DNA from: Bdellovibrionota bacterium
GTDB lineage: Bacteria > Bdellovibrionota_C > UBA2361 > CALJRW01
Length of the DNA: 64,000 nt
Assembly (NCBI GenBank): GCA_041740355.1
Contig: JBGSMD010000038.1
Coordinates: 64,001-128,000, forward strand
Reading direction: 5' to 3'
Shown here: piece after piece, positions 4,466 through 63,770 of the stretch
Position numbering within the stretch: position 1 is the stretch's first letter
How the letters are laid out: each line of letters opens with the position of its first letter
The notes under the pieces: model-generated
The model's input: the letters and a program-made list of their open reading frames with translations, nothing else
Told to the model about the DNA's origin: nothing
Databases searched by the model: none
Position numbers and translations under genes: made by a program

Positions 4466-4629
4466 ACTAACTAGGCAAATTTAACTCTCACCCTGAGATT
4501 TAGTTATTGAGTGTTTCACTTGATACCTTTTCCAAGAAGGACACTTAATTCCATAAGCATCATAAGTTGATTTTAGCCTAAAAAACAAGATTAGTAATAA
4601 ACTTGAATAACAATCGAACAAGTCATTTA

Positions 4630-4773
4630 TAGTTATTCCAAAAAATAAATTACGTATAAATAAAATAGCGCAGCATGTTTTTTTCTAATAACTATATGAT
4701 TTTACTACACTTGCGGGGAATAGAAAGCTCCAAAAAGTAGTTTCCTTACGTAAATTACTTTTTGGACTTTCTA
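4630..4773 (+). mobile_element. MITE-like family 1, copy 1 (144 bp, TA flanks)
   Basis: TA|TAGTTATTCCAAAAAATAAATTAC...GTAAATTACTTTTTGGACTTTCTA|TA; absent from the paralogous promoter near 5700-5720. Confidence 0.8.
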
Positions 4774-4916
4774 TATTACAATGGTCAACAAACAAAAAAG
4801 TTACCCAATTTAACCTAGAAACGAAGTACTAGTATTTACTTGTTAAAATGTATATAATTTCTATAATTAATAAAATGTTTAAATAATGACTTTTAAAAAT
4901 TTTATCAACAATCTGA

Positions 4917-5462
4917 ATGTCAATTAGTCGTCAAGAAAATACTCCCTGTAAAAAATCTAACGGTTTTACCTTAGTGGAGCTTTTAGTAACAATTGTAATT
5001 GTGGGGATCTTAGCTTCGATGGCAACCTCTGCATTTGATGAGTATAAACGTAGGGCTAATGATGCTGTCGCAATTTCTGCTTTGCGGAACATGATTACAA
5101 GTTTTAATGTTTATTTATCCGATGTTGGTTCAATGAAGAACGATCCAGATATTAACATTAATGCCTTTTATTCTTTTGGTATGGGAGTTAATGGAGTTGC
5201 AAATATTGCTCCAAACATACCAAATGCCCAAGCAAAGCTTTTACCAGGATATATTCATCCTAAGAATGTTGGAGTTTTCATGAATTTTACTACCGAATTC
5301 TATCTTGCGTATGCTTCTCATTGCAAAGGTAGCCTTGGTGCCGCAGGGTTTTACGGCGAAGGGAATACAGTACCTAGAAGCTTCTATCTTGGATCAAATA
5401 CACAGCTTTATTCCAATTTCAATGGGATGAACATGGCATTTGATGGTAGTAGTTGCCTTTAA
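4917..5462 (+). CDS. Type IV pilin (prepilin N-terminal cleavage/methylation domain)
   Basis: KSNG|FTLVELLVTIVIVGILA (G-1, F+1, E+5); C-terminal Cys pair. Confidence 0.9.
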   Translation: MSISRQENTPCKKSNGFTLVELLVTIVIVGILASMATSAFDEYKRRANDAVAISALRNMITSFNVYLSDVGSMKNDPDININAFYSFGMGVNGVANIAPNIPNAQAKLLPGYIHPKNVGVFMNFTTEFYLAYASHCKGSLGAAGFYGEGNTVPRSFYLGSNTQLYSNFNGMNMAFDGSSCL

Positions 5463-5470
5463 ACTCTTGA

Positions 5471-5609
5471 TACTATTTACCTGGATTATTTTTTTGTAAA
5501 GATAAATAACACGATTTATAACGACAAAATCCTAAAAAAAGACTTTTGTTGTTTCACTATTTCATCCACATTAGGCCTAGTAATTGATAACCAAAAAGGA
5601 TTTTTCTCT
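5471..5609 (-). pseudogene. Degenerate duplicate of the 3' end of the 6406-7908 gene
   Basis: Aligns by eye to 6391-6540 (gattattttt..gtaaagataaa, tgttgtttcac.atttcatccac, ataaccaaaaaggatttttctc). Confidence 0.8.
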
Positions 5610-5847
5610 AACACCCCAAGAACAGCACTTAATTCCTTAGGAGCATGCCTTGAGTCTTGCACAACAGCAAGATTACCAATGAACTTAAATGACAATCGAA
5701 CAAATTATTTATCACAACGGCAAACAAAAAAGTTACCTAATTTAGCCTAAAATTAACGTACTAGTATTTACTGGCTAAAATGTATACAATTTACATAAGT
5801 AATACATGTTTACATAGTGACTTGTAAAATTTTTACAAACAATCTGA

Positions 5848-6387
5848 ATGTCCATTAGTCATCAACAAAATACTCCCTGTAAAAAATCCAATGGTTTTAC
5901 CTTAGTGGAGCTTTTAGTAACAATTGTGATTGTGGGGATCTTAGCTTCGATGGCAACCTCTGCATTTGATGAATATAAACGTAAGGCTAATGACTTAGTA
6001 GCCATCTCCGATCAGATCAACCTTATTTCAAGCTTTAATAACTATTTAGCTGATGTTGGTGCAATCTCAAACGATCCAGGCTTTACAACAGATTCAATGT
6101 CTATAATTTTCAATACTGACGGGGCCATGTCTATGAACCCAAGCATACCCAATGGCCAATCGAAAATATTACCAGGCTATATTCATTCTAAGAATGTTGA
6201 AACTGTTCTGGTGTTACTGAAACAAAACTCAGGCTTTGTTACAAATGCTACCCATTGCAATGGTAGCACAGGCAGAACGTCAGACTATGATAGTCCTCTA
6301 ACTAGGAGGTTCCATATGAGTTCTTCATTGCCCAATAGAATCTCAACATTTAGCGGTTTTCCAAGTGATGGAAGTGGTTGTCGTTAA
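5848..6387 (+). CDS. Type IV pilin, paralog of 4917-5462
   Basis: First ~50 aa nearly identical to the upstream pilin; divergent C-terminal domain with Cys pair. Confidence 0.9.
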   Translation: MSISHQQNTPCKKSNGFTLVELLVTIVIVGILASMATSAFDEYKRKANDLVAISDQINLISSFNNYLADVGAISNDPGFTTDSMSIIFNTDGAMSMNPSIPNGQSKILPGYIHSKNVETVLVLLKQNSGFVTNATHCNGSTGRTSDYDSPLTRRFHMSSSLPNRISTFSGFPSDGSGCR

Positions 6388-6405
6388 ATTTACTATCTGC
6401 TTTTG

Positions 6406-7908
6406 CTAGATTATTTTTTCGTAAAGATAAACAACACGGTTCCTAACAAGATAATTCTGAATAAAAAGATATTCCTGTTGTTTCACAATTTCATCCACCT
6501 TAACCCCCGTCAATTCATAACCAAAAAAGGATTTTTCTCCAATCTCTTGTTTTATTTGAGGAACGACCAAACAGCTTGGCTGAAAATGACTAATTGAGGT
6601 GGTAACTAAAGTAGCTAGATTGACTTCTTGGTTTGGAGCATATGCCACAGGAAGGTTAACAATCTCATTTTTGATTGGATAAGCCACGTAGTTTGATTGA
6701 AAGTATTTTTTAAATCTTTCATCCGCTAACAAATCAAATCGAACACTTTCAACGTAACCAGCTATGTTTAAAACCAAACATTTATTAAGTTGCGGATTTG
6801 AATTAATAAGGGTGGATATTTCTTGCCATGGTTTACTTGCGACTAAAATATCAAAGTTTTTTCTAAAATAGAAGGAGTTATAGAAAAGCATTACTAAGAC
6901 TACCAGCGTTAATAACTGCCTATTAAAAGATGCTAATATGCCAGCAAAGATTAGGAAATTTCCAAGAAATATCAGAATGGTGTACCTAGGTAAGAAAAAA
7001 CTGCCTTCAATCAATGCTGACATGAGAAACAATGATGTTACTAGAGTAATGATCAATCCAATCCCAATTTTGAAAATTTGATTATCATCTTCATCCTTAA
7101 AGTGCCTTGGAAATACTAAAAACCAAATACCTAAGAAGCTAAAAGTTAATAGCTCTGGGTAAAAGATTTTCTTGATCAGCTCAATTACAGTTGGAATACT
7201 AACTATTACTAAACTACTAGATTTATTAACTATCATTACTAGCTGTGGCCAGAACAAAAGGACACTACAGGCGGCAATAGTTAGGGGTATAAAAATCCGA
7301 AATGTGGTTTTTGGACGTTTTGATATGTAAAGCAGTAGAAAAATTTCAAATGCCCAGAACTGAATAGCTAAGTAATGTGCATAGACTAGCAGAATATTAG
7401 CAACAGTGAATTTTATCCAAAACTGCCTACAATCTTCAAAATTTAGGATTAAGTAAGTGAGGTATACCGCAAGAAAAAAAACTAATGAGTAAGGCCGTGC
7501 TTGTGTCGCAATCATCAAAAAATTTGCTGATGTAAACATGAAGCATAGTGCGATCGTTGCTATCAGCGGACTGCTTAGTTTATTTATTATCTTATAAAGA
7601 TAATAAGCAATTGCTAAGTTGAAAAGCATTGATGGCACTCTAAGTGCCATCTCCATCGGTAGAAAAGGACTGGAAAGATAATAGAAAAATTTAGTAATTA
7701 TGAAATGAAGTGGGCTGTGGTGTTGAACAGTATAAACTTGCGATATTAATTCCTTAAAATCTAGTCCAATTAAATAAAAGGTATTTGTCTCGTCCAAGAT
7801 CAAAGGTAGCAGGTAATAAGAATAGTTTATGAAAATTGCAATAAAAAAACATAGCACTACAAAGAAGTAGATCAGTTTCTGAAAATAGGAAGATTGGTTG
7901 GAAGTCAT
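6406..7908 (-). CDS. GT-C fold (PMT_2/GT39-like) membrane glycosyltransferase
   Basis: LDE loop, HSPLHF, ALRVPS, QARPYS, HY and PRY motifs; multiple TM segments. Confidence 0.75.
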   Translation of the reverse strand: MTSNQSSYFQKLIYFFVVLCFFIAIFINYSYYLLPLILDETNTFYLIGLDFKELISQVYTVQHHSPLHFIITKFFYYLSSPFLPMEMALRVPSMLFNLAIAYYLYKIINKLSSPLIATIALCFMFTSANFLMIATQARPYSLVFFLAVYLTYLILNFEDCRQFWIKFTVANILLVYAHYLAIQFWAFEIFLLLYISKRPKTTFRIFIPLTIAACSVLLFWPQLVMIVNKSSSLVIVSIPTVIELIKKIFYPELLTFSFLGIWFLVFPRHFKDEDDNQIFKIGIGLIITLVTSLFLMSALIEGSFFLPRYTILIFLGNFLIFAGILASFNRQLLTLVVLVMLFYNSFYFRKNFDILVASKPWQEISTLINSNPQLNKCLVLNIAGYVESVRFDLLADERFKKYFQSNYVAYPIKNEIVNLPVAYAPNQEVNLATLVTTSISHFQPSCLVVPQIKQEIGEKSFFGYELTGVKVDEIVKQQEYLFIQNYLVRNRVVYLYEKII

Positions 7909-8156
7909 TTGCGAGAGTTAGAACTATTTAGCTGTTTAAAGTGGCATCTGTATTATAATACCATATATCATAAATACATGATTTGAAAAATAAAAAACTA
8001 AGCTCACTGAAAAGCATTTTAGTATTACCCAAGTCAGACCTCCTGCTCAATAATTTCAGCTAGAATTACGACAACAATACTCACAATATTTAACTAAAAG
8101 GCACCCGAGAATATCAGTAAAAATCATATGCGAACAAAGGACATCCCGTCACTAGA

Positions 8157-9680
8157 CTATTGTTCATATTCTAATAATTTCGCTGGATGATCGATTATTA
8201 GTAGCCATTTTTGCCGGGTTGGGTAGTAATTAATTAGTAATTGATTTTCTAACGGGTTTAAAAACCGAGCAATGACAATCTTTTGTTGATCAATATTTGC
8301 TGAGTTATATACCACTTCATGTCCTAATTCATGATTTTGATACTTAACAAACACCAAATGTTGTCTTTGATCATCAATCAATGGCTGAAAAACTTCTTTT
8401 TTTGATGAAAAAATAGAACTCTGAAGATATTCATGTGTTGTTGAAACCGTATTCACTAGCTCGGTAGTGAGAATAATAAAATAGCCTGTAATAATTAGTA
8501 TTTTCCAGCGCTGTGCTAATCTGCAACAAAGAATATTTTCAATTAAAATTGCTAGTCCTAAAAAGAGAATCACAGCATAGGGCGCAGAGTAATGACTATT
8601 GTCAAAGGCTATGGGAAGAAATCCTATAGCTATAATCATGACAAGCATGCCGATTGTGAAGTTTGCTAAGGGATGGCTGATTCTCTGATAAAAAATAAAT
8701 AAAAATAAGAGAAGAATTCCGATACTTAGATAGCTTCTAAAATGCCTGCCAATTTTTTTAAAAACGAAATTACTATAACTCAGAAGTGACTCCTTACGTG
8801 ACACTGCTTGCTGGGCCTCTTCTAGATAGAACTCTTTCATCTCGGGATATGCAAAGGAATTTGGATAATTATTATTTGAAAATACGAAAGGCTGCGCGAT
8901 AGAGTATTTATCTTGATATCTGCTATAGGCAGAGGTAGTAGCAGAACCCGTAGTATGATAATTATACCACCCCCAAAAGATAATTGCTGTAAATGCAGTT
9001 AACATAAACAATAATATTATTGTTTTTTTAGTAAGCTCTGTGCTGACTAGTCTGCTTAGGCAAAAAAGCATACCAAAAAGCAACACTAGCCCTTCAAATG
9101 GCCTGCCTGATAGGAGCATCAATCCACCAACGACAAACAAAAGACAATATAAAAAATGATATTTTTTACGATAATTTAATACGGTATTTAAAGTTAATAG
9201 CGCACCAACAAAACTTCCTAAACCTCCCCAGTAGGTTAGTACCCAGCTAGCGATGATATGCGGATGAAGTGCCACTAGAAGACTTAGAATTGTGGTAGTT
9301 GTAATCGAAAAATTATTTCTGAGCACATGATAAGTGAGTATGATGGCAAGCAGGTGCAGCACTATCACACCTAATAGTGGATGCAGGTTTAGTGCTAAGG
9401 GAATTGCATACACAAAACCAAGCAGAGGGGGGAATCTTCCAGTATAACAAGGCAGATGTTGTATCTGAAAAGACTCAAAAAATTGATAGTGCGGGTGAGT
9501 TGGGTTACATAGTCTACCATTTGAGATGGTGTCACCTATTAATAGATAAGCAAACTCATCGAAAAAAACAGGAAAAGGATTCACCCAATAGAGTAAGCCT
9601 AGGTCTAGGCACAAGGCTATCAAAACTAATAGAGTAAGAATAAATAATGGTTTTTGAGTTAATACTCTCGTAACATTCAT
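8157..9680 (-). CDS. GT-C-like polytopic membrane protein
   Basis: FDEFAY loop, RFPP, RPFEG and YNYHTTG motifs; same family as 40081-42063. Confidence 0.65.
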   Translation of the reverse strand: MNVTRVLTQKPLFILTLLVLIALCLDLGLLYWVNPFPVFFDEFAYLLIGDTISNGRLCNPTHPHYQFFESFQIQHLPCYTGRFPPLLGFVYAIPLALNLHPLLGVIVLHLLAIILTYHVLRNNFSITTTTILSLLVALHPHIIASWVLTYWGGLGSFVGALLTLNTVLNYRKKYHFLYCLLFVVGGLMLLSGRPFEGLVLLFGMLFCLSRLVSTELTKKTIILLFMLTAFTAIIFWGWYNYHTTGSATTSAYSRYQDKYSIAQPFVFSNNNYPNSFAYPEMKEFYLEEAQQAVSRKESLLSYSNFVFKKIGRHFRSYLSIGILLLFLFIFYQRISHPLANFTIGMLVMIIAIGFLPIAFDNSHYSAPYAVILFLGLAILIENILCCRLAQRWKILIITGYFIILTTELVNTVSTTHEYLQSSIFSSKKEVFQPLIDDQRQHLVFVKYQNHELGHEVVYNSANIDQQKIVIARFLNPLENQLLINYYPTRQKWLLIIDHPAKLLEYEQ

Positions 9681-9810
9681 TAGTTTTGCATAGTCCCGTA
9701 ATCAGCAATATTAGCTTACTGGCTCTTTAACTCTTTGGATACCTGCTCATTCCTTTTATTTTAAACCTAATTGTTTGATATTTCCCCAGTAATTAGAGAC
9801 CTGAGCCCCC

Positions 9811-11234
9811 ATGAAAATATCACTACACAAATCTTCTCAATTCATAATTATTAACTTAACTTGCTAAATATTACTACTAAGCTCTTGTTAAAAGGAACCC
9901 AGGGAAAATATTAAGAAGATCGAGAATCTTAATGTGCTCCTAATTATTCTCTATACTTTAGCCCCTGATCAAACTAGCATTTATAATTCAGAACTCGACA
10001 CTACTCCTCACTTAAAGGCCTTAGCAGATAAATCTTTAGTATTTAATTCTGCCTACAGTACCTCCTCTTGGACAAAACATTCAATCTTTTCAGCTTTTAC
10101 TGCACTTTATCCATCTCAACATAAAGCCGATAAACTCTATGTTCCACGAGATCGCAGCTTTGAGACTTTAGCCGAACGAATAAAGGGCGTGGTTATAAGA
10201 CGGCCGGTTATATGAGTCATACAATGCTCTCAAAGGATAACGGCTTAGATCAAGGCTTTGATGATTACGCCTTAACAAGTGGGCACAAGAATCCCCATGT
10301 TTCAATTTCTAGTAACAAAGTTACCGACCTAGCTTAAAAATGGTTCAACAAAAACGATGATTTTTTCAGATAACAACAAAAATCGGGATAAGTTTTTCAT
10401 GACTCTTCATTATTTCAATCCCCACTATACCTACATGCACCATCCACAGTTTGACTATAGTAGTTGGTATAAAGGTAAAATTGATCCTAATGAAAAATTT
10501 AGAAAGTTAAAAGCAAACTCAGGTAAATATTCCGAAGATGATATTAATTTCTTAGTAGGACTTTACCGCGAAGAAATTAAATTTACCGATTCTCACATTG
10601 GTAGACTATTAGAAGAACTAAATAAGCGAGGCTTAGACCAAAACACTTTAATCATCTTTATGGCCGATCACGGTGAAGAGTTTTTAGAACACGGAAGTAT
10701 GGGACATTCACATACTTTATATAATGAATTAACACATGTGCCGCTGATCTTCTCCATGACTGGGCTAGTTCCTGCTCAGAGACTTGAACAACCTGCTGTA
10801 TCTACTATAGATATTATGCCAACAATTGAAGGCCTGTTCCAAGAACCAAAACCTCAAAGTTACTGAAAAGGTAGAGATTTAAGTCAGACTGTAAGAGGAG
10901 ACAACCCTCGGAAGATCTTCCAGCTTTGTCAGGGTTATCATATGAATCATTGCGTTTACCACCAGCCTACAAAGTTTCTGTTGTTAAAGGAAAGGGGAAA
11001 TTAATCTTTGATAAAATCTCTAAAGAGCATGAGCTCTATGATTTAAAAACTGATCCTAGTGAGAAAAATAATTTGGCAAAAGCGCAACCTGAGCTTGTAA
11101 GTGAATTAGATACTTTAATTCAAAACTTTATTGAAATTGTTGCACTACCAGTTGATAAATCACTTACTCTGGCAAAAGCAACTAAAAGATTGCAAGAGGA
11201 AATTCAAAAACTAAAGAGTTTGGGGTATTTCTAA
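9811..11234 (+). pseudogene. Sulfatase-like lipoprotein broken by frameshifts and nonsense codons
   Basis: Fragments: LLLSSC lipobox-like, SSWTKHS..TALYPSQH, QGFD, HYFNPH, ADHGEEFLEHG, ELYDLKTDPSE and C-terminal LKSLGYF, spread over 3 ORFs with stops near 10335 and 10864. Confidence 0.85.
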
Positions 11235-11292
11235 ATTTATCAAGCACAACAAATAGGATAATTCAAGATACAAGTCTGATTTAACTATTAGT

Positions 11293-13569: not shown

Positions 13570-13791
13570 AGATATACTTATAGAAAAGTGCTCAGCAAGT
13601 ATGACCTGAATCTAGTTGGTCGACAATCACAGAACTTAGGGTAATTGTAGATAGATTAACTTAGCTCGTGAATTTATTCTAAATGTTTACATTCGAAATT
13701 AAGATGTCGTTGAAATTTAAAACGTTAGGTTAGATTAGAAGATTATTCCTAATTTCAAGCTTGATTAGTATAAAAATTACAATCTTAACAG

Positions 13792-16683: not shown

Positions 16684-16863
16684 TACTAGGGGACAATCAA
16701 AAATGAACGTTTTAAAAATCTAGTCGCCTAGTATAGCAAGCAGGTAGTGACTCAAGTCACCTAAGGGTAATACTGGGGATAACAAATATACTAAAAACCC
16801 AACAAACATAAAATGCATTCTGCATTTTTTAGAAACAGTAAGATAATTCTTAATGGGTTAGTA
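16684..16863 (+). repeat. Dispersed repeat/MITE-like family 2, copy 1
   Basis: Homologous to the reverse complement of 44217-44429 (TATACTAGG.GACA start, AAAATGCATTCTGCATTTT, TAATTCTTAATGGGTT end). Confidence 0.7.
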
Positions 16864-20981: not shown

Positions 20982-21115
20982 TAGTAAGTCCAAAAAGTAA
21001 TTTCAGTAGAGAATTACTTTTTGGGGCTTACTCTCCCCCCAGAGGGATAATAAAATCATATAGTTATGACAAAACTAACTTTTTAATATTTCTAAATTAC
21101 TTTTTGTCGTAACTA
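20982..21115 (-). mobile_element. MITE-like family 1, copy 2 (134 bp, TA flanks)
   Basis: Reverse complement: TA|TAGTTACGACAAAAAGTAATTT...ATAACTATATGATTTTAT...AAATTACTTTTTGGACTTACTA|TA; ends ~18 bp before the kamA ATG. Confidence 0.85.
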
Positions 21116-23739: not shown

Positions 23740-25682
23740 TGTTTCGCGTTGTTAAGAACCTGATAGATATTAGAACCTAGGGAGCGAAAGCCTTCTGGAC
23801 TAGGTGCCTCTCGCCAATATTGATCCTTGGGCTCATAAAAAATGTAGTCTGGACATACAGGCAATTGACAATTCTTGATCATGATTTTTTTTTGTGCATA
23901 CTGCTCAGCTTTATATGACAAGCCATGAGTCCAAAGAGTTCCAGTATATCCTAAGTATAGCTTTCTTCCTGTTAACGTAATAGTGGAATTGTGTAGTGGC
24001 TTGGCGGCAATAATTGCCTTTGGAGGGGTCAGCTGACGAATCTTCTTTGCAAGATCCAACTGATTACTACTGTAGACCTGTGAATGTTTACCATTGACTG
24101 CAATTAGACCAAGACGATAAATTCCCGGTAAAATTAAAATAATCAAAACTAAATTTAAACGACTACGCGAGGGGATTAACAACTGCCAGCAGACTATGAT
24201 TAGTAAATAAACGGGGATAAATATTTTAATTTGATCATAATTCCAATACGCCAACTTAATCACATTACCAAAGATGAAAAAAATCAGGACAAAGGATAAT
24301 AGTTGCGCCGCGGTGGAAACAATTTGCTGGAGTCCAAATAATACTAAGCCCAAAATAAAGACAAATAATATTAAGTGGCTAGTACTCCCTGAAGTGGACT
24401 GAATGAGCCAAGATGCAAGTAATAACAACAAAGCAAATAATCCTGACTGCCAAGCTTTGCTACGAATAACTAATATTAAATAAATCAGAATAATATTTCC
24501 GGCGTTGACCAGCCAAAAGAAAGTCTTATTCAAGACTGCGCTATTTAAAATATTTAGAAATCCGATTGTTCCAAAATAGGATTTTTCAAGTGTTCCTGTT
24601 TTCCAACCACTGATTACTTTAATCACCGAGGTTTTATCTCCAAGATAAAAGATAAAAATCGTAGAACAGGCAATTATCATGAGTCCAACTAATACCGGAA
24701 ATAAGAACTGGTAATTTTTTCGATAGCGTAGTGCCTGCCCCAGCAAAACCATAACTGTAACGCCACTGGCAATAATCCAGGTATGCGTATGAACTAATGG
24801 CAAACAGAATATTATGAGTATTGAAAAAAATAGTAATTGGCCATTAATCGAAGCTCTAGATGGTAACTTCAAAATAGCTGGCAATGCTGCAATTAAACAA
24901 ATTGCTCCTAACAATGCACTTCGCTGTGGCACCCAAATAGTCTCAAGGAATCCGGTCCAGGGTAAATTAGCATCAATCAACTGACTAGCTAAATGATTTA
25001 GCCGCAAGTATACTCCTCCGCCCAATAAGACTACCCATGGCAAGAATTTATATTTATCTCCTCGCAGGAATCCATAGAGCAAACTCGTATTAAAGATCCA
25101 TTGATAAAGAAAAACGTACTTAAGTGTTAACCATTCAGCATCTATCCACCAGAAAGAAGCAGTCCAAAAATTGATCACTAAGGGGTAGCTTAATTTATGA
25201 CCTGCAAAAATGTGATACTCCGGAGGAAAATTTTCTCCCCAGACAAAGGAAGTAATCATTCCAAAATGATAAGCAAGATCGCCATAATTACTTGGCCAAT
25301 ATGTCCGAATCCCATCATCTAAATCAAAGATGGACACTCCGATGATTAGATTTAAGATGCTATAAATAATAAAATTGATCCCAAATTTTTTGGGACACTT
25401 CATATTTTGATAAACATTCTTAGCAATGAATGGAATTGGCAATAACCAAATTATAACCGTGGCAACAATCCAGCTAGCGCCAAAGTTTTTCAACATTAAA
25501 AGAAATAAATTGCTTACCAACAAGCCGAGTAGAATGTAATATCTAGCTGGTAATATCTTTGGTCTCCGAATTGGCGCAAGACTTATCACCCTATACCCTA
25601 CTCCGTAACAGTAGAATGGATAGAGGACAAATAAAATTATGATGATGAGAATATTCACAAGAAATAATATATTAAAACCCAT
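23736..25682 (-). CDS. GT-C-like polytopic membrane protein
   Basis: NYGDLAYH, LSYP, PQRS, HTH and LTGRKLYLGY..LWTHG motifs; ATGA overlap with the next gene. Confidence 0.6.
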   Translation of the reverse strand: MGFNILFLVNILIIIILFVLYPFYCYGVGYRVISLAPIRRPKILPARYYILLGLLVSNLFLLMLKNFGASWIVATVIIWLLPIPFIAKNVYQNMKCPKKFGINFIIYSILNLIIGVSIFDLDDGIRTYWPSNYGDLAYHFGMITSFVWGENFPPEYHIFAGHKLSYPLVINFWTASFWWIDAEWLTLKYVFLYQWIFNTSLLYGFLRGDKYKFLPWVVLLGGGVYLRLNHLASQLIDANLPWTGFLETIWVPQRSALLGAICLIAALPAILKLPSRASINGQLLFFSILIIFCLPLVHTHTWIIASGVTVMVLLGQALRYRKNYQFLFPVLVGLMIIACSTIFIFYLGDKTSVIKVISGWKTGTLEKSYFGTIGFLNILNSAVLNKTFFWLVNAGNIILIYLILVIRSKAWQSGLFALLLLLASWLIQSTSGSTSHLILFVFILGLVLFGLQQIVSTAAQLLSFVLIFFIFGNVIKLAYWNYDQIKIFIPVYLLIIVCWQLLIPSRSRLNLVLIILILPGIYRLGLIAVNGKHSQVYSSNQLDLAKKIRQLTPPKAIIAAKPLHNSTITLTGRKLYLGYTGTLWTHGLSYKAEQYAQKKIMIKNCQLPVCPDYIFYEPKDQYWREAPSPEGFRSLGSNIYQVLNNAKQ

Positions 25683-25886
25683 TCGGTTTTACTGAAAGAC
25701 AAGAAAAAGCTACTAAAAATATTAAGATAAATAGCTATCATCAAGTGAGATTATTAGATTAAGGAAATCGTGCAAGCGCGACAAGCGGAGGTTTTACACC
25801 AATTACCCAAAACAGATTTAGAAAATCGTCGAAGACAAAGGGAACTGCTGGAAGAAATTAAGAATAGGGTCAAAATTTAAGAGTTA

Positions 25887-32248: not shown

Positions 32249-32410
32249 TAGTAATGACAAAAAATAATTTACGTTAGTAAATTGAATAGAGTCATTACGG
32301 CTAATGCAAATCTTGGTTTTATCCAAGTTTGCATAGCTAAAAACAACATTAATAGTGAGTTCAAGCAAAATCGTTAATCATTTAAAGTAATTTATTTATT
32401 GGACTCACTA
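32249..32410 (+). mobile_element. MITE-like family 1, copy 3 (diverged, 162 bp, TA flanks)
   Basis: TA|TAGTAATGACAAAAAATAATTTAC...GTAATTTATTTATTGGACTCACTA|TA; same terminal hairpins but a different core. Confidence 0.65.
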
Positions 32411-32537: not shown

Positions 32538-32759
32538 ATGGAATTTGATAATCACGAAAATCGTTTAGCAAGTCTTTGGTTTGTTGGAGCTGGAATCTTC
32601 GCAATTTGCCTAGGTATCTTCATTTTTAATGTTGATTTGTACATCACAAATTCTGACCGAGAAGAAATTCGTGGAAGGGAAATGAAAGAAGTGCGAACCG
32701 CCCAAGCCTCTTTTGTTAGTACGCAAGATCCACGGATAGCAGCTTCTAACCCAAAATAA
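32538..32759 (+). CDS. Small single-TM protein
   Basis: 73 aa ORF with one hydrophobic helix, fits an intergenic gap. Confidence 0.6.
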   Translation: MEFDNHENRLASLWFVGAGIFAICLGIFIFNVDLYITNSDREEIRGREMKEVRTAQASFVSTQDPRIAASNPK

Positions 32760-33974: not shown

Positions 33975-34114
33975 TAAAGAGTCCTAAAAGTAATTTATCA
34001 AAGAAAATTACTTTTAGGGCTTTCTACCCCCGAAGGTAGAATAAAATCATATAGTTATTAAAAAAAGCAAGTAACTCTATTTTATTTATAAGTAATTAAT
34101 TTTTGGAATAACTA
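33975..34114 (-). mobile_element. MITE-like family 1, copy 4 (140 bp)
   Basis: Reverse complement aligns full length with 4630-4773; termini slightly decayed; lies 3 bp from the comM ATG. Confidence 0.8.
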
Positions 34115-34117
34115 GAT

Positions 34118-35650
34118 ATGTTAGCACGTACCTTTAGTTCGGTCATTAACGGCCTTTCCGCTGTGGCAGTGGAGGTCCAAATCAAAATCTTACCTACCAG
34201 AAATGATCATGAATTTAAGTTTGAGATAATTGGACTAGCTGATACGGCAATACGAGAAGCCCGACATCGCGTGGTAAGTGCCTTAAAGGTAATTGGGGTC
34301 AAGGTTCCGAGTCATGTGTTAGTTAATTTAGCACCTGCTGGAATCAAAAAGGATGGATCTAGTTTTGATCTTTCAATTGCAGTTGCTCTTTTAAATGCGA
34401 TGAAGAAGTTAGACCTGCCGGTAAAGAATTGTGGATATTACGGCGAACTGGCGCTTGATGGATCAATTAAGCCAGTGGTTGGTATGGTTGCGCACGCTAT
34501 TGCTGCGCGTAAAAACGGTTGGAAAAAACTATTTGTTCCGGCTATAAATGCCGAAGAGGTCGTGGCAGTAACAGGCTTGGAAATCATACCTCTACGGGCA
34601 GTCGAAGATCTATTTGCTTATAGCCGTGGAGAGCTGTTGCCTTTAGAGCCAAGCTTAAAGCAGGAGCTGACTGATTCGAATTTTACTTGCTTAGCGGATG
34701 TTCAGGGGCAGGAACAAGCGAAACGTGCTTTGGTCTTGGCAGCAACAGGAGGGCACAATCTCTTGTTCGTTGGGCCACCTGGTTGTGGCAAAAGTATGTT
34801 AGCACAGCGTTTGCCTTTACTTCTAAGTCCGATGAGTAATGAAGAGAAGATTGAATCTGCCGCTATTCATAGTGTTGCTGGGATTGCCACTAAAGATTTA
34901 TTGGCAGGCAAACGTCCATTTCGCAGCCCTCATTATACAATTTCAGATATTGGACTGATAGGAGGAGGTCATAATCCAAAGCCTGGAGAGATTAGTTTAG
35001 CTCATAATGGAGTCTTGTTCTTAGATGAGTTTCCTGAATATAAGCGTTTAGCTTTGGAAGCTTTGCGAGCGCCTTTAGAATCTCGAAAGTTGTTGATCAG
35101 TCGAGCAAAGTATAATCAAGAGTTCCCAGCAAATTTTCAATTAATCGCTGCGATGAATCCTTGTCCATGTGGACGCTTGGGTTCAATTCGTGGGGACTGC
35201 TCATGCGGGCCTTATGCCGTAAACAAATATTTACAAAAACTTTCTGGCCCCATTTTGGATCGGATTGACCTTCAGGTTTCATTGCAATCTGTTGATATTA
35301 ATCAATTCCGTAACCAAGTATTACCTAGCAAGGATGATTCTGAAACTAATTTGTTGCTAAAGATTCAAAAAGCCCAAAGAATTGCAATCGAAAGACAAGG
35401 AGTAAGTAATAGCCTGTTAGATAATAAGAGATTGCTCAAAATTGTTCGCTTAAAAAATAGTGCTGAAGATTTTTTAGAAAACTTTGCTAGTAAGCGTAAT
35501 TTTAGTGCCAGGGCTTACTTTAGGGTTTTAAAAGTATCCCTGACAATTTCTGATTTAAAGGAGTCTAAAGGAGTGGAGATTGAGGATGTCGCTGAAGCTT
35601 TATCTTTCCGGAGTTTAGAGATTATTAAGGATTATGCTCGAGTTAGCTAA
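34118..35650 (+). CDS. comM: YifB/ComM Mg-chelatase-like AAA+ ATPase
   Basis: NLAPAGIKKDG, GPPGCGKS, AHNGVLFLDE, AAMNPCPCG and SGPILDRID. Confidence 0.92.
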   Translation: MLARTFSSVINGLSAVAVEVQIKILPTRNDHEFKFEIIGLADTAIREARHRVVSALKVIGVKVPSHVLVNLAPAGIKKDGSSFDLSIAVALLNAMKKLDLPVKNCGYYGELALDGSIKPVVGMVAHAIAARKNGWKKLFVPAINAEEVVAVTGLEIIPLRAVEDLFAYSRGELLPLEPSLKQELTDSNFTCLADVQGQEQAKRALVLAATGGHNLLFVGPPGCGKSMLAQRLPLLLSPMSNEEKIESAAIHSVAGIATKDLLAGKRPFRSPHYTISDIGLIGGGHNPKPGEISLAHNGVLFLDEFPEYKRLALEALRAPLESRKLLISRAKYNQEFPANFQLIAAMNPCPCGRLGSIRGDCSCGPYAVNKYLQKLSGPILDRIDLQVSLQSVDINQFRNQVLPSKDDSETNLLLKIQKAQRIAIERQGVSNSLLDNKRLLKIVRLKNSAEDFLENFASKRNFSARAYFRVLKVSLTISDLKESKGVEIEDVAEALSFRSLEIIKDYARVS

Positions 35651-39126: not shown

Positions 39127-39197
39127 TTCTCCCCTTTTGTGACGCACTGGATAATTTAGTTATTATTCACAATGCTAGGCGTCGCAAAAGGGGAGAA
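39127..39197. repeat. REP/REPIN-like family 3, copy 1
   Basis: TTCTCCCCTTTTGTGACGC-N33-GCGTCGCAAAAGGGGAGAA. Confidence 0.85.
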
Positions 39198-39376
39198 TGT
39201 GATTCAATTCTTTTAAATTACTTTCTTTAAAAAATAAAGTTTCTGAGAAGATTCTTTTTATTGAGCGATTTTAGGGATGACTAACAATCCGCCTTCGCCT
39301 CTGATTTTTTAGAAGTTGTTTGGATCTAGAAGGCTACGGCGTGATTCATTTTTTTACGAAGTAACAAAGAAACTGG

Positions 39377-39448
39377 TTCTCCCCTTTTGCGACGCAACAT
39401 ATCGAGGCATTTAATAGCATCGCGACTGTGCGTCACAAAAGGGGAGAA
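39377..39448. repeat. REP/REPIN-like family 3, copy 2
   Basis: TTCTCCCCTTTTGCGACGC-N34-GCGTCACAAAAGGGGAGAA, abutting the tRNA-Tyr 3' end. Confidence 0.85.
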
Positions 39449-44053: not shown

Positions 44054-44216
44054 CAACCGGTTATTTTTTGGACTCTCTCTCGAACAGGAAGTGCTTGAAG
44101 TCACCAAGGCGGAGACGGATGCTATAATAAAACCGATTAGAATTCACTGAACGGCAAAGAATAAAGCTTCCACCATCGCAAAAACTTCGGAGGATAAGTG
44201 CTACTTTTTCCGAATA

Positions 44217-44429
44217 TACTAAAACCCATTAAGAATTACCGAACTGCTTTGTAAAATGCAGAATGCATTTTCAGTTTATTAGGGTTTCAGGATACTTGTC
44301 TTCTCCAGTTATTATCCTTATTTTATAAAGATAATAACCTTTGCGACCCCCTTAGATCGCAGCAAGCACTTCATGCTGGATAAACTAGGTAATTAAAAAT
44401 GAAGCAGTGATTTTCAATGTCACCTAGTA
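44217..44429 (-). repeat. Dispersed repeat/MITE-like family 2, copy 2 (213 bp, TA flanks)
   Basis: TA|TACTAAAACCCATT...AATGTCACCTAGTA|TA imperfect terminal inverted repeat; homologous to 16684-16863. Confidence 0.7.
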
Positions 44430-52837: not shown

Positions 52838-52891
52838 TTATCCCAAAGGGTAATAAAGTTTTAGAATTGATTTTTTATTAGGAGTAAAAAA

Positions 52892-53469: not shown

Positions 53470-53501
53470 CCGTTAACTGTTTTGTTCAGTGACGGCTTTT
53501 T
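53470..53501 (+). terminator. Possible intrinsic terminator/attenuator in the rplL-rpoB spacer
   Basis: CCGTTAACTG-ttttgtt-CAGTGACGG followed by CTTTTTGTGTTTT. Confidence 0.5.
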
Positions 53502-53830
53502 GTGTTTTGTTGGTTAGAATTTTGAAAACGTAATCGTTTTCAAAAAGTCAAAAATATTTTGGCTTAATAAGTAATGATACTGTGATGCGTTTTCCTTTAG
53601 AAATGTTTCACAGTCACTTTGAAAGTGCCTCCAAATACTTTGCTCATTCAAATATTCTTTGGATGTTTATTGCTACTTTTGGCACAAGATTATTCTCGAT
53701 TTAAGAAGTAGGGAAAATATTATCGCTAGATAATAATGCCCTGGTAGAGGTTCAGTCAATCCTCAAATTTCTTAAGGCGTAAGTTTAATCCTACTAACTT
53801 TGTTGTATTGCACATTGGGATTGTTTGATA

Positions 53831-58300: not shown

Positions 58301-58306
58301 ATGCCC

Positions 58307-58343
58307 TAAGCGTCACTAGGCTTTTAAAGCTTAGTGACGCTTA
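58307..58343. other. Strong hairpin between rpoB and rpoC
   Basis: TAAGCGTCACTAGGCTT-tta-AAGCTTAGTGACGCTTA. Confidence 0.6.
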
Positions 58344-58373
58344 TTAGAAAAGTTATACGAAATAATAAAAACT

Positions 58374-61300
58374 ATGAGCGATATATTTAGCCTTTTTAAT
58401 AAACCGAAAAGCCCAGTTGACTACAGTGCTGTAAAAATCTCATTGGCTGGTCCAGAGATGATTCGCTCTTGGTCTAGTGGTGAAGTAACAAAGCCTGAAA
58501 CTATCAACTACCGTACATTAAAACCGGAACGTGATGGTTTGTTTTGTGCGAAAACTTTTGGTCCAGTTAAGGATTATGAGTGTGTTTGTGGTAAGTACAA
58601 AAGACTGCGTCACCGTGGTGTTGTTTGTGAAAAATGTGGTGTGGAAGTTATTGAATCTAAAGTTCGTCGTGAGCGTTTAGGTCACATTGAACTTGCCTGC
58701 CCAGTTGCTCATATTTGGTTCTTAAAAAGCTTACCAAGTCGTATCGGTACAATCCTAGACATTACTCTACGAGATCTAGAGAAAGTACTTTACTTCGAAG
58801 CTTACATTGTTACTGAAGATGGTGACTCTGATTTTGAAATTGGTCAGATTCTTACTGAAAAAGAATTCCGTGATGCTCAAAAAGAAATGGCTAATGGAAC
58901 CGGGGAAGAATTTAAAGCCGGAATGGGTGCAGAATCAATCGAAGTCCTATTAAAGCAATTAAATCTTCAAGAAATGTACGATACCCTTCGTGCCGAAATT
59001 AAAGATGTTACATCTGTAGCTAAGAAGAAGAAATTTGCTAAACGATTAAAAGTTGTCAGCGCTTTCTTAGAATCTGGAAACACACCACAGTCAATGGTAC
59101 TGAAAGTATTACCAGTTATTCCACCAGATCTTCGTCCTTTAGTTCCACTTGATGGTGGACGATTCGCGACAAGCGATCTGAATGATTTATACCGTCGTGT
59201 AATTAACCGTAACAACCGTTTAAAAAGATTAATTACGCTTCAAGCTCCGGACATTATCGTTCGTAACGAAAAGCGTATGTTACAAGAGTCAGTTGATGCA
59301 CTTCTTGATAATGGTCGTCGTGGTAGAACTGTAACTGGTCCTAACAAACGCCCACTTAAATCTTTAAGTGATATTCTTAAAGGTAAGACTGGACGTTTCC
59401 GTCAGAACTTACTTGGTAAGCGTGTTGATTATTCAGGTCGTTCAGTAATTGTAGCTGGTCCTGAACTAAGATTACATCAGTGTGGATTACCAAAGCAGAT
59501 GGCTTTGGAATTATTCCGTCCGTTTATTTATAACAAACTAGAAACTAAAGGTTACGTTGCTACAATTAAAAGCGCCAAGAAAATGGTGGAGCAAGGTAAA
59601 GAAGTAGTTTGGGATATTCTTGATGAAGTTATTAAAGAGCACCCAGTGTTACTTAACCGTGCACCAACTCTTCACCGACTTGGACTTCAAGCATTCGAAC
59701 CAATCCTAGTTGAAGGTAAAGCTATTCGCTTACACCCACTTGTTTGTTTCGCATTTAATGCTGACTTTGACGGAGATCAGATGGCTGTTCACGTTCCTTT
59801 GTCTGTGGAAGCTCAAGTAGAAGCACGAGTGCTCATGATGGCAACTAATAACATTCTTAGTCCGCAAAGTGGTAAGCCAGTTATTCCACCATCTCAAGAT
59901 ATTGTACTTGGACTTTATTACATGTCTCGTATCCGCCCTTTCGCTAAAGGTTCTGGACGAACATTTGCTAATCCAGGTGAGCTTTGGTTCGCTTGGCAGT
60001 CAGGTGAAGTTAATGTTCAGGCAGGTGTGAAATGTAGAATTAACGGAAAGATTGAAGAAACTTCAGTTGGACGAGTTCTTTTCTATTACATGGTACCAGA
60101 TACATTACCTTTCAAATTCTTTAACAGAGATTTGAAGAAAAAAGATCTTACTCAAATGCTTGATGAAGCCTACAGAACAGCTGGTAACAAAGCTACTGTA
60201 ATCTTTGCTGACCGCATGAAAGACATTGGATATCGTTTTGCAACTCTTGCTGGTATTTCGATCGGAATTGACGACATGACAATTCCAGAAAGCAAGCAAA
60301 GAATTCTTGCTGATGCTGATGCTAAAGTAATGGAAATTGATAATCAGTACCAAGAAGGTTTGATTACAATGGGAGAGCGTTATAACAAAGTCATCGATAT
60401 TTGGTCAGACGTAGGGGATAATATTGCTGAAGATATGCTTCAGGGTATTTCTACTGCTGAATTTAAAAATGAAGAGACTGGTGAAATCGTTCGTGGGTCC
60501 TCTTTCAATCCCATTTATGTAATGGCTGACTCAGGAGCCAGGGGTTCTAACCAACAGATTCGTCAGTTGGCTGGGATGCGTGGTTTGATGGCTAAGCCAG
60601 ATGGATCGATTATTGAACAACCGATTAAATCTAACTTCCGTGAAGGATTAACAGTACAACAGTACTTCGTTTCTACTCACGGAGCTCGTAAAGGTTTGGC
60701 CGATACTGCTCTTAAAACAGCTAACTCTGGTTACTTAACTAGACGTTTAGTTCTTGTTGCACAGGATTGTATTATCACTGGTGAAGATTGCGGAACATCT
60801 CAAGGGATTCCTCAAACTGCTTTAATCGAAGGTGGTGAAGAGATTGAATCGTTGACTAACCGAATCTTAGGACGTGTTGCTGCTGAGGACATTTACGATT
60901 CAGTTACTAATGAAGTAATCGTTAAACAAGCTACTGAGTTAGATGAAGTTGCCTGTGATGCTATCATCTCTGCTGGAATTGACAGTGTGATGATTCGTTC
61001 AGTTCTAACTTGCGAATCAAAACGTGGAGTTTGTATTAAGTGTTATGGTCGTGACTTAGGTCGTGGACACATGGTTAATATTGGTGAGCCAGTAGGGGTT
61101 ATTGCTGCTCAATCAATTGGTGAGCCGGGAACACAGTTAACAATGCGTACTTTCCACGTCGGGGGTGCGGCATCTGGTCGTTCAGAGCAATCAACTTTAG
61201 AAGCTCGCTTTTCAGGTAAGGTTAAGTTTGAAGAATTAAAATCTGTAGAAAAGAAAAACGGTGCCATTGTTGTAATGAACCGTAAAGCAGAATTCGTAGT

Positions 61301-62513
61301 TCTTGATGCTCAAGATGGGCGTGAAAGAGAACGCCGTAAATTAGTTTATGGTTCTGTTCTTAAAGTTAAAAATGGTGATGATGTGACTGCCGGTCAGCTT
61401 GTAGCTGAGTGGGATCCGTTTACTATTCCATTATTAACTGACGTTGCCGGACGTATCGAGTGGCAAGATATCAGTGAGCTTACAATGGAAGAGCGTACTG
61501 ATGAAAGAACTGGATTCGCCGAAAGAGAGATCATTCAAGCTAAAGATAAAACTTCTGATTTGAAACCACGGCTTTTAATTCACACTGCTACAGGCGAAGT
61601 AAGAACATACAACTTACCAGTTGGTATTCGTTTAACTGTTGAGCATAATGTGGAAATTGATGCCGGGGATGTTATCGCTAAGCGGGAGAGAGCATCCACT
61701 AAGACTAAAGATATTACCGGGGGTCTACCTCGCGTAGTTGAATTATTTGAAGCTCGTAAACCAAAAGATCCAGCCTTCGTTGCTGATGTTGATGGTACGA
61801 TTGAGTTCGGAGAAGATTTACGTGGTAAGCGACGTCTTTATATTCGCCCAGAATATGGTGATATCGTAGAATACTTAATTCCTAAGAATAAGCATATCTC
61901 TGTGGAACAAGGTGACTTGGTTCGTTCAGGTGATACAATTACAGATGGAGATGAGAATCCACATGATATCTTAAGAATTAAAGGTGTTTCTGCTCTTGCT
62001 GAATACTTAGTAAATGAAGTTCAGCAGATTTATCGCCTACAAGGTGTACGAATCGATGATAAACACATTGAAGTAATCGTTCGTCAGATGTTAAGAAAAG
62101 TTCTAATCACTGATATGGGTGATTCAAACTTCTTAATTGAAGATAACGTGGAAAGAATTCGTGTTCTGGAAGAGAATCAGCGTTTAATTGCTGCTGGTAA
62201 ATCACCAGTTAAATTTGAATACCAATTACTTGGTATTACAAAATCAGCCCTAAATACTGAGTCGTTCATTACTGCTGCAAGTTTTCAAGAAACTACTAAA
62301 GTGTTAACTCAAGCGTCAATCGCTGGTAAAGTTGACCACTTGATGGGATTAAAAGAAAACGTAGTAATGGGTAAATTGATTCCGGCTGGAACAGGAATTA
62401 AAGCTTATAAAAGCAAAGAAGTTTTTGTTGAAGGACAAGAACAAGAACCCGTTGCTGAAGTTAAGCCAAGAATTACTCAAACTTCAATCGAGTCTTTAGC
62501 GGCTTTATTATAA
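58374..62513 (+). CDS. rpoC: RNA polymerase beta' subunit
   Basis: NADFDGD, zinc-binding Cys residues and [15 protein letters not shown]. Confidence 0.99.
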
Positions 62514-62540
62514 GTAGCTAAAAAAACTCATTGTTCATGA

Positions 62541-62580
62541 AAAGCCAGTTTGGATTTATCTCCAAGCTGGCTTTTTTGTT
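62541..62580 (+). terminator. Rho-independent terminator after rpoC
   Basis: AAAGCCAGTTTGGA-tttatc-TCCAAGCTGGCTTTTTTGTT. Confidence 0.85.
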
Positions 62581-62664
62581 TTCTCTGTAATTTTGCCATT
62601 TTATAAAGTAAAGCCTAGTTAGTTTTAGTATATTCAAATGATTTTGATGAGGTTAAAATGATAC

Positions 62665-63453
62665 ATGGTTAAATCTTCTTTCTGGGCATTACTAGCTAGT
62701 TTACTACTCTGGTCTTTATCCCTGTACTTTACTAAGCAATTGCCTGCGCCCAGTGAAATAATTAGAAATCTAAAAACTAATCCGAAACAATATTCAACCA
62801 CGGAGCCAGGTTTTGATTTTTCTTATGCTGGTGAGAATTATAATGTGGATCCAATTGCTGATTATGAACTTTATGGATTAGTAGTTAGTCATAATAACAT
62901 TGGTGGTTTTACGGATGCTTATCACACTAGCAAATCTGTTGATTTAAAAGATGCCTGTGTTGTCTGGGGATCTAATTTGATGTCTGATGTTTATCAAAGA
63001 GTTAAATTTACTAGTGGAGCTTGGACTTGTTATTTTAACTTTGATAATAGCCAGGATGCTGGTGATTTTGAGTTAAGCCAAATTTCTAACAATCACTTAC
63101 TTTCCGCTGATCCGACAATTCAAAAGCACATACGAAACTTAAACATTGGAGATCAGATTCACTTGCGAGGCTATTTGGTTAATTATGCGAATTCTAAAAC
63201 TCCAAACCAATTAAGACGATCCAGTACCAACCGAACAGACACTGGAGATGGAGCTTGCGAAGTTTTCTACCTAGATCATTTAAAAGTTTTAAAGGCCGGA
63301 AATCCTTTATGGAATACCATTAGGACTATTACCTATTATGCTAATTATATTTTCGGGTTCCTCTTCTTGGTAACCTTTATTTATTTTGAGCAGTCGCGAT
63401 TTCAGCGGCGGAAGCAACCAGCAAATACTAAAGTCAGATTTAGTCAGTACTAG
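62665..63453 (+). CDS. Hypothetical membrane-anchored protein
   Basis: TM segments at both termini; SNNHL and RTDTGDGACE motifs; function unknown. Confidence 0.75.
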   Translation: MVKSSFWALLASLLLWSLSLYFTKQLPAPSEIIRNLKTNPKQYSTTEPGFDFSYAGENYNVDPIADYELYGLVVSHNNIGGFTDAYHTSKSVDLKDACVVWGSNLMSDVYQRVKFTSGAWTCYFNFDNSQDAGDFELSQISNNHLLSADPTIQKHIRNLNIGDQIHLRGYLVNYANSKTPNQLRRSSTNRTDTGDGACEVFYLDHLKVLKAGNPLWNTIRTITYYANYIFGFLFLVTFIYFEQSRFQRRKQPANTKVRFSQY

Positions 63454-63524
63454 TTCTCCCCTTTTGGGACGCAGAAGATAATCTAGTTATTAGTGGTAAT
63501 GCTGGGCGTCCCAAAAGGGGAGAA
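63454..63524. repeat. REP/REPIN-like family 3, copy 3
   Basis: TTCTCCCCTTTTGGGACGC-N33-GCGTCCCAAAAGGGGAGAA directly after the TAG stop. Confidence 0.85.
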
Positions 63525-63595
63525 CTAATTTTCTATTTATACCGCGCTTAGCCTGTTCCTTATTTACTTTAAATTTTAGATTATTTAAGATAATA

Positions 63596-63737
63596 TAGTT
63601 GTGACAAAAAGTAATTTCTGAATGATTAAAAGTTACTTTTGAGGTTTTTGTCATAACTATATGATTTTATTTTCCCTCTGGGGGATAGTAAGCTTCAAAA
63701 AGTGATTCCCTACGGAAATCACTTTTTGGACTTACTA
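63596..63737 (+). mobile_element. MITE-like family 1, copy 5 (142 bp, TA flanks)
   Basis: TA|TAGTTGTGACAAAAAGTAATTTC...ATAACTATATGATTTTAT...GAAATCACTTTTTGGACTTACTA|TA. Confidence 0.85.
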
Positions 63738-63770
63738 TATTATTAATTTTAACTTAAGGCAGGATTTTTT

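Follow-up and report, generated by a model that had tools for sequence, protein, structure and literature searches.

The link between a bacterial MITE and its transposase usually consists of nothing more than similar ends. RUP, which occurs together with IS630-Spn1, is described as having about 100 intergenic, AT-rich and non-coding copies with TA ends (PMC2229807; PMC3049150). The Caulobacter element CIR is about 110 bp long, carries GANTC and is listed without terminal inverted repeats and with its mobility mechanism left open (PMC2229807). In Neisseria, the Correia elements lie preferentially upstream of genes, have outward promoters and a proven IHF site, and are cleaved by RNase III (PMC2229807; PMC10969869). 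For ISY100, whose mechanism is taken here as the model, 30 bp per end suffices in vitro (PMC2170065).

The window analysed here, a stretch of 64,000 nucleotides from a Bdellovibrionota genome (G000), had been described in a first-pass annotation as holding five copies of one Correia-like MITE family. All five elements lie where that annotation placed them (Table 1), four of them with TA on both flanks (the exception is the copy at 33975), and their left and right ends agree at 16–20 of 25 bases, so that terminal inverted repeats are present. The single family was retained for four copies only, named family A. The fifth element, at 32249–32410, was rejected as family A since a profile built from the other four gives no match there, and it represents a sister family (B) whose right end equals the left end of a resident IS630 at 23 of 25 bases. 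The two hairpins proposed per element were recovered in the four family A copies (folding z = −4.0 to −8.3), and the linker hairpin CCCTC(C/T)GGGGG is also kept in the genomes G001, G002, G003 and G045. The core motif ATAACTATATGATTTTA, thought to be invariant, is indeed seen in four of the five window elements and is exact in just 38 of 109 complete copies. The faced genes had been named correctly (a pilin-like N_methyl protein, a KamA-family protein, the 73-aa ORF at 32538, the 33830 gene and glutamine synthetase); for the 33975 copy the closest start lies at the opposite end, where the ATG of yifB/comM at 34118 is 3 bp off the left end of the element.

Table 1. Positions of the elements, their sub-parts and an empty target site in the window.
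Feature	Position	Strand	Remarks
Family A MITE e1	4630–4773	+	young subfamily; TA at 4628–4629 and 4774–4775
e1 left hairpin	4630–4694	+
e1 linker	4695–4720	+
e1 right hairpin	4721–4773	+
Empty paralogous target site, single TA	5710–5711	+	upstream of duplicated pilin-like gene 5848–6387
Family A MITE e2	20982–21115	-	between SET-domain gene and kamA-family gene
Sister family B MITE (e3)	32249–32410	+	terminal repeat as in family A; core unrelated
Family A MITE e4	33975–34114	-	decayed; left flank TC
Family A MITE e5	63596–63737	+	upstream of glnA
e5 left hairpin	63596–63659	+	arm 1 (terminal repeat) pairs with arm 2, an inner inverted copy of arm 1; TA follows
e5 "IHF-like core"	63653–63669	+	last 7 bases of arm 2 and first 10 bases of linker
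e5 linker, 26 bp	63660–63685	+	holds small CCCTC(C/T)GGGGG hairpin
e5 right hairpin	63686–63737	+	arm 3 (inner terminal-repeat copy) pairs with arm 4 (right terminal repeat)

Family A, about 145 bp long, has 127 full-length profile matches in the genome, 109 of them clear of contig ends, and its terminal repeat gives 479 matches of at least 16 bits against one in the shuffled genome; the repeat is far beyond chance. The copies are short, numerous and intergenic, with one of 109 flagged as lying inside a gene called by a custom hexamer-based caller (2944 genes; not standard annotation). TA stands on both sides of 77 of 106 copies, and 11 of 106 are at least 99% identical to another copy. A replication-strand bias found no support, as local GC skew places 52 copies on the leading and 47 on the lagging strand, with three unclear. 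The terminal-end pattern is patchy within the order, occurring in 6 of 91 genomes, in one of them as a single match. Neither the plasmid nor the phage collections contain a match to the element, and the open-access literature covered describes neither family A nor a four-arm IS630 MITE; a description could stand in ISfinder, in subscription journals or among the MITEs in the supplement of bioRxiv 10.1101/2024.01.18.576219. A terminal repeat also lies within 160 bp of 45 of the 148 contig ends, and much of the fragmentation of the assembly is therefore attributed to these repeats.

The annotation's proposal of a non-autonomous IS630/Tc1-type element with TA duplication gains from two findings, namely an IS630 with matching ends in the same genome and single-TA empty sites. 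The IS630, pieced together from fragments at contig ends, is 1205 bp long and encodes in one frame a transposase of 339 aa (DDE_3, E = 2e-32; N-terminal HTH matches below cut-off) with a candidate acidic triad, D180/D259/E290, picked by motif. Its four left ends are identical, as are its four right ends, and all eight are TA-flanked. They agree with the ends of e1, a copy 0.958 identical to its nearest neighbour, at 22/25 and 21/25 bases. The IS-type inner motif AAATTAC occurs in the left end of 18 of the 21 youngest copies vs. 18 of the 85 older ones, a count whose cases are not independent because the youngest copies form one or two clades. End match correlates with age (rho 0.62), in part through decay, since the IS of G002 too gives a rho of 0.42. 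Beyond the ends the core shares only a chance-level 9-mer with the IS630, which means that family A did not arise from this IS by simple deletion. Two distributions weigh against mobilisation by such an IS630: G001 has 65 end-pattern matches and no DDE_3 match (the assembly is 94% complete and repeats are often unassembled), and G021 has an IS630 59% identical with similar ends, yet no end-pattern match. A scan of the genome_contigs collection with the transposase gave one distant locus with 34% identity.

TA duplication and empty homologous sites, which had been named as the test of mobility, were both found. The region around e1 and the empty paralogous site at 5710–5711 are 82% identical over 109 bp across the junction, with one TA. 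Single-TA empty sites were likewise found for C64:80439 (by comparison with C13) and for C13:55618, which is inserted in a family D element. Element e5 is missing at its orthologous site in G001, where one TA stands, e2 is missing at its own, and e4 is missing in that genome; for e1, G001 offers no orthologous region that can be aligned, and the e3 site is anchored there on one side only. Conversely, the G001 loci L027 and L032 have single-TA empty sites in G000 (two clean junctions of 14 tested); flank pairs exist for nine of 20 G001 loci, six of which are listed without element in G000, mostly with no base-precise junction. Reconstructed empty sites gave a spanning match in 39 of 181 cases, mostly to self or to other repeat copies, and five were kept by eye (three of family A, one of B and a weak one of C). 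Among the joints listed from three low-depth DNA runs of one study on the same population, covering a 19.9-kb C38 stretch with five elements, none was an empty-site joint, a result that says little either way; one of these runs may be the source of the assembly. No RNA run was among the sequencing runs listed as containing the sequence. Mobility of the elements, as judged from these comparisons, is well supported.

The duplicated TA also bears on whether the element is REPIN-like and moved by resident HUH/Y1 (RAYT-type) transposases. REP/REPIN systems with RAYT consist of short GC-rich palindromes beside a RAYT gene. The genome has five Y1_Tnp matches, the element has a two-hairpin build, and GC-rich hairpins nest in the sister families; against this, the 25-bp terminal repeats are AT-rich and match an IS630, and TA is duplicated at empty sites. 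HUH transposases are not known to create a target duplication, and such an origin is therefore largely refuted and has a negligible chance of being correct. Family A is instead very probably a selfish, non-coding MITE for which a DDE transposase of the IS630 family, resident in the same genome, acts in trans. By analogy with the biochemistry of ISY100, the transposase would bind the ~25-bp terminal repeats, excise the element and direct it into a TA within AT-rich DNA between genes, after which repair would duplicate the target TA.

The distinctive feature of family A is its build, in which four terminal-repeat arms form two hairpins around a linker. Both ends have inner partners in 57 of 106 copies vs. 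none of 150 shuffles, and the order outer–inner, linker, inner–outer lets each end fold on itself. Compensation is visible between arms 1 and 2 at position 8 (G-G in 66 and T-T in 25 of 101 copies), between arms 3 and 4 at position 4 (T-T in 44 and A-A in 43 of 101) and in the change of GAC/GTC to CCC/GGG in G002, G003 and G045, all of which indicates that the build is kept by compensatory changes across three genera. Uncompensated arm changes occur at arm 1 positions 5 and 9 (23 of 101 copies each), and arms mutate at 0.05–0.11 vs. 0.14–0.25 in loops. Inheritance of the hairpins from the parent IS was considered and discarded, as the IS ends are unfolded and without an inner partner (8–10 of 16). 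The hairpins are specific to the MITE, since folding is absent from the ends of the IS630 of G000 and G002 (z between −1.0 and +0.8). The ends of family A recur in three or more sister families (B, C and D among them); a four-arm build common to them was not borne out, as the two-end test was passed by 0/30 B, 0/11 C and 0/5 D copies, which have at most one clear inner partner each, although terminal hairpins do form in individual copies of B and D.

The strong folding, the compensatory changes and the slower mutation of the arms would also be expected of a family of structured RNAs (sRNA, attenuator or RNase III substrate) in which selection acts on the two hairpins as RNA, as would the C(UUCG)G-like loops, of an RNA tetraloop type, in the G002, G003 and G045 copies. 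The strand opposite these loops reads as a stable DNA GAA loop. Selection as RNA is nonetheless very improbable: strand preference is absent (mean −37.4 vs. −38.0 kcal/mol, with 46 of 106 copies folding better on the plus strand), G-T and A-C account for 126 and 121 of the single mismatches, element positions are not conserved between species, and Rfam gives no match at gathering score and only chance matches at E ≤ 1.

Partial forms of the element occur as well. Solo left hairpins without linker occur at C6:14083 and C65:1902 with TA on both sides and at C15:23611 (decayed at left), and at C46:72188 a right hairpin stands alone, TA-flanked at both ends and bearing the signature of arm 3. There are six 55-bp left–right hybrids in G000 and two similar 56-bp units in G002. 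An inner TA is kept at arm 2 in G000 and G001; most G002 copies keep theirs at arm 3. Under the preferred explanation, the inner arms would also act as ends or recombination partners, producing the solo hairpins and 55-bp hybrids. More tentatively, family A could be seen as a mini composite transposon of two hairpin mini-MITEs (~65 and ~52 bp), each made up of two copies of one end type, jointly moved through the outer ends and each separately excisable, with inner arms kept matched while the family follows one IS630 transposase after another. In-place deletion of inserted copies would account for these forms too. If the composite reading were true, family A would provide two-arm elements like CIR with the mechanism of movement that they lack, and its ~52-bp units would rank among the smallest natural DDE substrates.

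A different role had been suggested by the position of the window elements, namely that of a portable promoter or 5'-UTR module, retained because the gene downstream is driven or tuned from the GGACT end while IHF binds the centre. The fixed orientation did not extend to the genome: of 102 copies, 67 have the GGACT end toward a gene start (chance alone would give ~61%), 51 have the opposite end toward one, and 35 have the GGACT end toward a gene stop; five of five gene-facing copies in the window have a chance probability of 0.08–0.13. Tandem sites show a bias of 33:17 for GGACT end to start with loose gene calls (p = 0.033), which is gone with stricter calls (33:21 and 34:21; p = 0.13 and 0.11), and orientation there is 14:6 in old copies (p = 0.12) as against 9:6 in young ones. 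At divergent sites the GGACT end is nearer in 17 of 34, and site classes equal the intergenic-TA background (chi-square p 0.18–0.56), with no preference for positions upstream of genes. Nor did a consensus scan bear out the portable promoter, as σ70-like sites point toward the GGACT end in 27 of 106 copies and toward the other end in 37 of 106, compared with 231 of 797 controls. Orthologous G001 sites do without copies, and upstream of the pilin paralogue the same region is found with no element in it.

For the IHF core the picture is mixed. The perfect consensus is in none of 109 copies. A predicted one-mismatch site is present in 84 of 109 copies and 13 of 15 G001 junctions, compared with 372 of 921 control intergenic 146-mers, and is lacking in all 14, 5 and 3 junctions of the more distant relatives G002, G003 and G045. 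TGATTTT is well conserved in the element. Most of the "IHF core" consists of the tip of an inner copy of the left terminal repeat. The genome has three HU/IHF-family genes; IHF-like proteins are encoded at C16:83938 and C30:132308, and the IHF candidates score below the himA and hip cut-offs. Correia elements do act as promoter modules (PMC10969869). A promoter or 5'-UTR role is nevertheless improbable, and the element as a regulatory discovery does not hold up. With transposition by the IS630 as the preferred explanation, gene-adjacent position and orientation would be a by-product of intergenic insertion, and single copies may still alter the expression of a neighbour.

This genome is of interest because it brings together a complete IS630 that has multiplied recently, several families of MITEs that share the ends of this IS, a young subfamily whose ends match those of the IS, and exact empty sites. 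It offers a compact system in which to test trans-mobilisation, the minimal size of a DDE substrate and the role of inner inverted ends. Compared with the described systems, family A resembles ISY100 of the IS630-Tc1-mariner group in TA duplication, ~24-bp imperfect terminal repeats and a transposase with HTH and DDE, whereas ISY100 is autonomous (PMC2170065). With Correia/NEMIS of Neisseria it shares a length of ~150 bp, ~25-bp terminal repeats, TA duplication and more than 100 copies (PMC2229807; PMC10969869). It is set apart by description, with IHF, promoters, RNase III and upstream preference all unsupported, and its predicted fold is two local hairpins, not the end-to-end stem of Correia. 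Like CIR, it has TA termini, two long hairpin arms with a linker and intergenic positions (PMC2229807). Unlike CIR, it builds its hairpins from copies of the terminal repeat and is accompanied by a matching IS630, and GANTC is absent from the family consensus and the two subfamily consensuses. RUP is likened to it by description in copy number, intergenic location, TA ends, AT-richness and lack of coding, and in terminal repeats that match a resident IS630, the putative mobiliser; in contrast to RUP, which is 107 bp long with end-to-end pairing (PMC2229807), family A has four arms in two local hairpins over ~145 bp and shares its ends with three or more sister families. The closest known systems are RUP/IS630-Spn1 by mechanism and Caulobacter CIR by shape.

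Family A, a ~145-bp miniature element, is a real MITE family that has been recently active, is probably dependent on an IS630 and has an unusual four-arm build. The five elements proposed in the first-pass annotation are all present at the coordinates given there, and four of them carry TA on both sides, the copy at 33975 having TC at its left. As a single family, however, they stand only in part: four are alike (family A), but the copy at 32249, which has the common ends and a different core, is missed by the profile built from the other four and represents a sister family (B). Searched against the 3.27-Mb source genome (G000), this profile matched 178 non-overlapping loci, 127 of them at full length (109 complete, 18 at contig ends). 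A weight matrix of the ends gave 479 genome matches at ≥16 bits versus 1 in a shuffled genome, and pairing of end matches yielded sister families B (30 paired copies, including that at 32249), C (11) and D (5), together with shorter forms of 55 and 68 bp. An Rfam search returned no match for the element. Within the order, the end pattern occurs in 6/91 genomes, with 269 matches in G000, 97 in G002, 65 in the congeneric genome G001, 59 in G045, 5 in G003 and 1 in G088.

Coordinates of the elements and associated features
Sequence	Position	Feature
Window	4630-4773(+)	e1, family A
Window	20982-21115(-)	e2, family A
Window	32249-32410(+)	e3, family B
Window	33975-34114(-)	e4, family A
Window	63596-63737(+)	e5, family A
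Window	4575-6500	Tandem pilin-like duplication
Window	5710-5711	Single TA, second duplicate
Window	33975-34118	e4 to yifB/comM start
Window	39127-39197; 39372-39448; 63454-63524	~71-bp hairpin repeat
Window	16772-16859; 25666-25696; 44121-44309	AATATACTAAAACCC-like repeat
G000	C5:41962-42453; C54:115-450; C64:25447-25707; C30:23610-23829	MITE stacks
G000	C26:61983	Family-B MITE inside repeat
G000	C6:14083; C65:1902; C15:23611	Solo left hairpins
G000	C46:72188	Solo right hairpin
G000	C12:51643-51882	Nested GC-rich hairpins
G002	L045:518-701	Nested GC-rich hairpins
G002	L021 (C77:14728-14882)	Family-A relative near IS630 gene
G021	L065:1344-2565	59%-identical IS630

The mobility part of the earlier reading holds, with TA duplication and single-TA empty sites. 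Both ends are TA-flanked in 77/106 family-A copies, the insertion target is AT-rich, and 11/106 copies share ≥99% identity with a copy elsewhere. The window contains an internal control, in that a pilin-like (N_methyl) gene and its upstream region are duplicated in tandem (spacing 931 bp, identity about 85%), with the MITE upstream of the first duplicate only and a single TA in the second. For each of two further family-A copies there is a paralogous empty site with a single TA, one of these sites lying within a family-D element; paralogous sites were chosen by eye from 39 spanning matches among 181 sites, mostly self-hits. In G001 the element is absent from the orthologous sites of e2, e4 and e5, the last with one TA, while the e3 site is anchored on one side only and e1 has no orthologue; in the reverse comparison, 2/14 G001 copies have a clean single-TA junction in G000. 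From the single-TA empty sites it follows that the element is TAG...CTA and the duplication TA. One TA is common to two ends head to tail in seven pairs, one including IS630 itself. MITEs of different families also form stacks, inserted at the TA of each other's ends or inner arms. Other repeats in the window are a ~71-bp hairpin repeat with arms TTCTCCCCTTTT...AAAAGGGGAGAA (two sites between tRNA genes, one directly after the 62665 gene) and a dispersed repeat with a AATATACTAAAACCC-like motif; a family-B MITE elsewhere in G000 sits inside a similar repeat.

An IS630-family transposase with matching ends was looked for and found in G000, which has one DDE_3 match. The IS630 is 1205 bp long and encodes in one frame a 339-aa protein with weak HTH matches and an acidic triad (D180, D259, E290), of which a 59%-identical relative is annotated as IS630 family transposase (Oligoflexia bacterium). 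It is collapsed at contig ends, with four identical left and four identical right ends, all with TA. Its ends agree with those of e1 at 22/25 and 21/25 bases and with the right end of e3 at 23/25. The IS-type inner motif is present in 18/21 of the youngest family-A copies versus 18/85 older ones, although the young copies form one or two clades, so that the enrichment counts as one or two events. For ISY100, the accessible text of PMC2170065 describes a transposase that binds ~24-bp ends and inserts at TA, 30 bp of each end being enough. We infer that the resident IS630 transposase would act on the family-A MITE. Against a tight coupling, G001 has the MITE and no DDE_3 match, and G021, another genome of the order, carries a closely related IS630 (59% identical) whose ends are similar, and gives no pattern match. 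The G021 IS630 has one end like the family-B right end and the other like the family-C/D left end, which suggests that sister families have followed different IS630 lineages. In G002, a decayed and distantly related IS630 gene has a family-A relative ~200 bp upstream.

Family A consists of two arm-loop-arm units (arms 1 and 2, then arms 3 and 4) separated by a 26-bp linker, with the terminal repeat copied in all four arms. The two long hairpins noted earlier are indeed predicted, with the linker, for the four similar copies (z -4.0 to -8.3), and 57/106 copies, versus 0/150 shuffles, contain an inner partner for each end (at least 12/16 bases). Arm 2 changes with arm 1 and arm 3 with arm 4: at position 8, arms 1/2 read G-G in 66/101 copies and T-T in 25/101, and at position 4, arms 3/4 read T-T in 44/101 and A-A in 43/101. 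Copies in G002, G003 and G045 show GAC/GTC to CCC/GGG with the linker hairpin retained. These compensatory changes reflect only a few events at subfamily level; other arm changes lack compensation. Because the IS630 ends neither fold nor have inner partners, the hairpins were not inherited from this parent IS. Solo modules are seen too, namely left hairpins lacking the linker, a right hairpin flanked by TA at either end, and six left-right hybrids of 55 bp; both solo transposition and deletion in place fit them. Family B and D copies, and the family-A copies of G002, have GC-rich ~30-bp hairpins nested in their loops; the G000 genome contains five Y1_Tnp genes.

The regulatory part of the earlier reading (IHF core, fixed orientation, promoter) is not supported by the genome-wide set. 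The "IHF core", made up of the final 7 bases of arm 2 and the linker start, had been called invariant and is exact in only 38/109 copies; a perfect consensus occurs in 0/109 and a one-mismatch site in 84/109, but the latter is also present in 372/921 intergenic control segments. An IHF-like site is found at 13/15 junctions in G001, 0/14 in G002, 0/5 in G003 and 0/3 in G045, and the three HU/IHF genes score below IHF cut-offs. IHF binding at the candidate core is possible, yet it is no conserved feature. As for fixed orientation, the GGACT end points toward a gene start in 67/102 copies and the opposite end in 51/102, with ~61% expected by chance for the former, given the proportions of intergenic TA sites. 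Tandem sites are oriented 33:17 in favour of the GGACT end facing the start (p=0.033), but under stricter gene calls the p-value becomes 0.11-0.13; young copies give 9:6, and a small bias among old copies is possible. A portable promoter finds no counterpart in sigma-70-like sites, which show no enrichment. No sign of selection on a single RNA strand was seen, folding being equal on both strands and mismatches balanced (G-T 126, A-C 121). Single insertions possibly have effects, as with e4, whose end lies 3 bp upstream of the yifB/comM start; the yifB ATG has GGAG just upstream in G001, at the place of e4 in G000, and the insertion may have altered translation initiation.

Among known systems, identity with Correia elements, as these are described in the accessible parts of PMC2229807 and PMC10969869, was rejected on the features tested. 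In the accessible parts of the literature compared, which also included PMC3184786 and bioRxiv 10.1101/2024.01.18.576219, no published description of this family was found. Family A resembles the Caulobacter CIR in having two arms, a linker and TA ends, the mobility of CIR being left open in the part of the review available (PMC2229807). As far as the available text of PMC2229807 and PMC3049150 goes, family A works like RUP with IS630-Spn1 and shows the tested features of that class.
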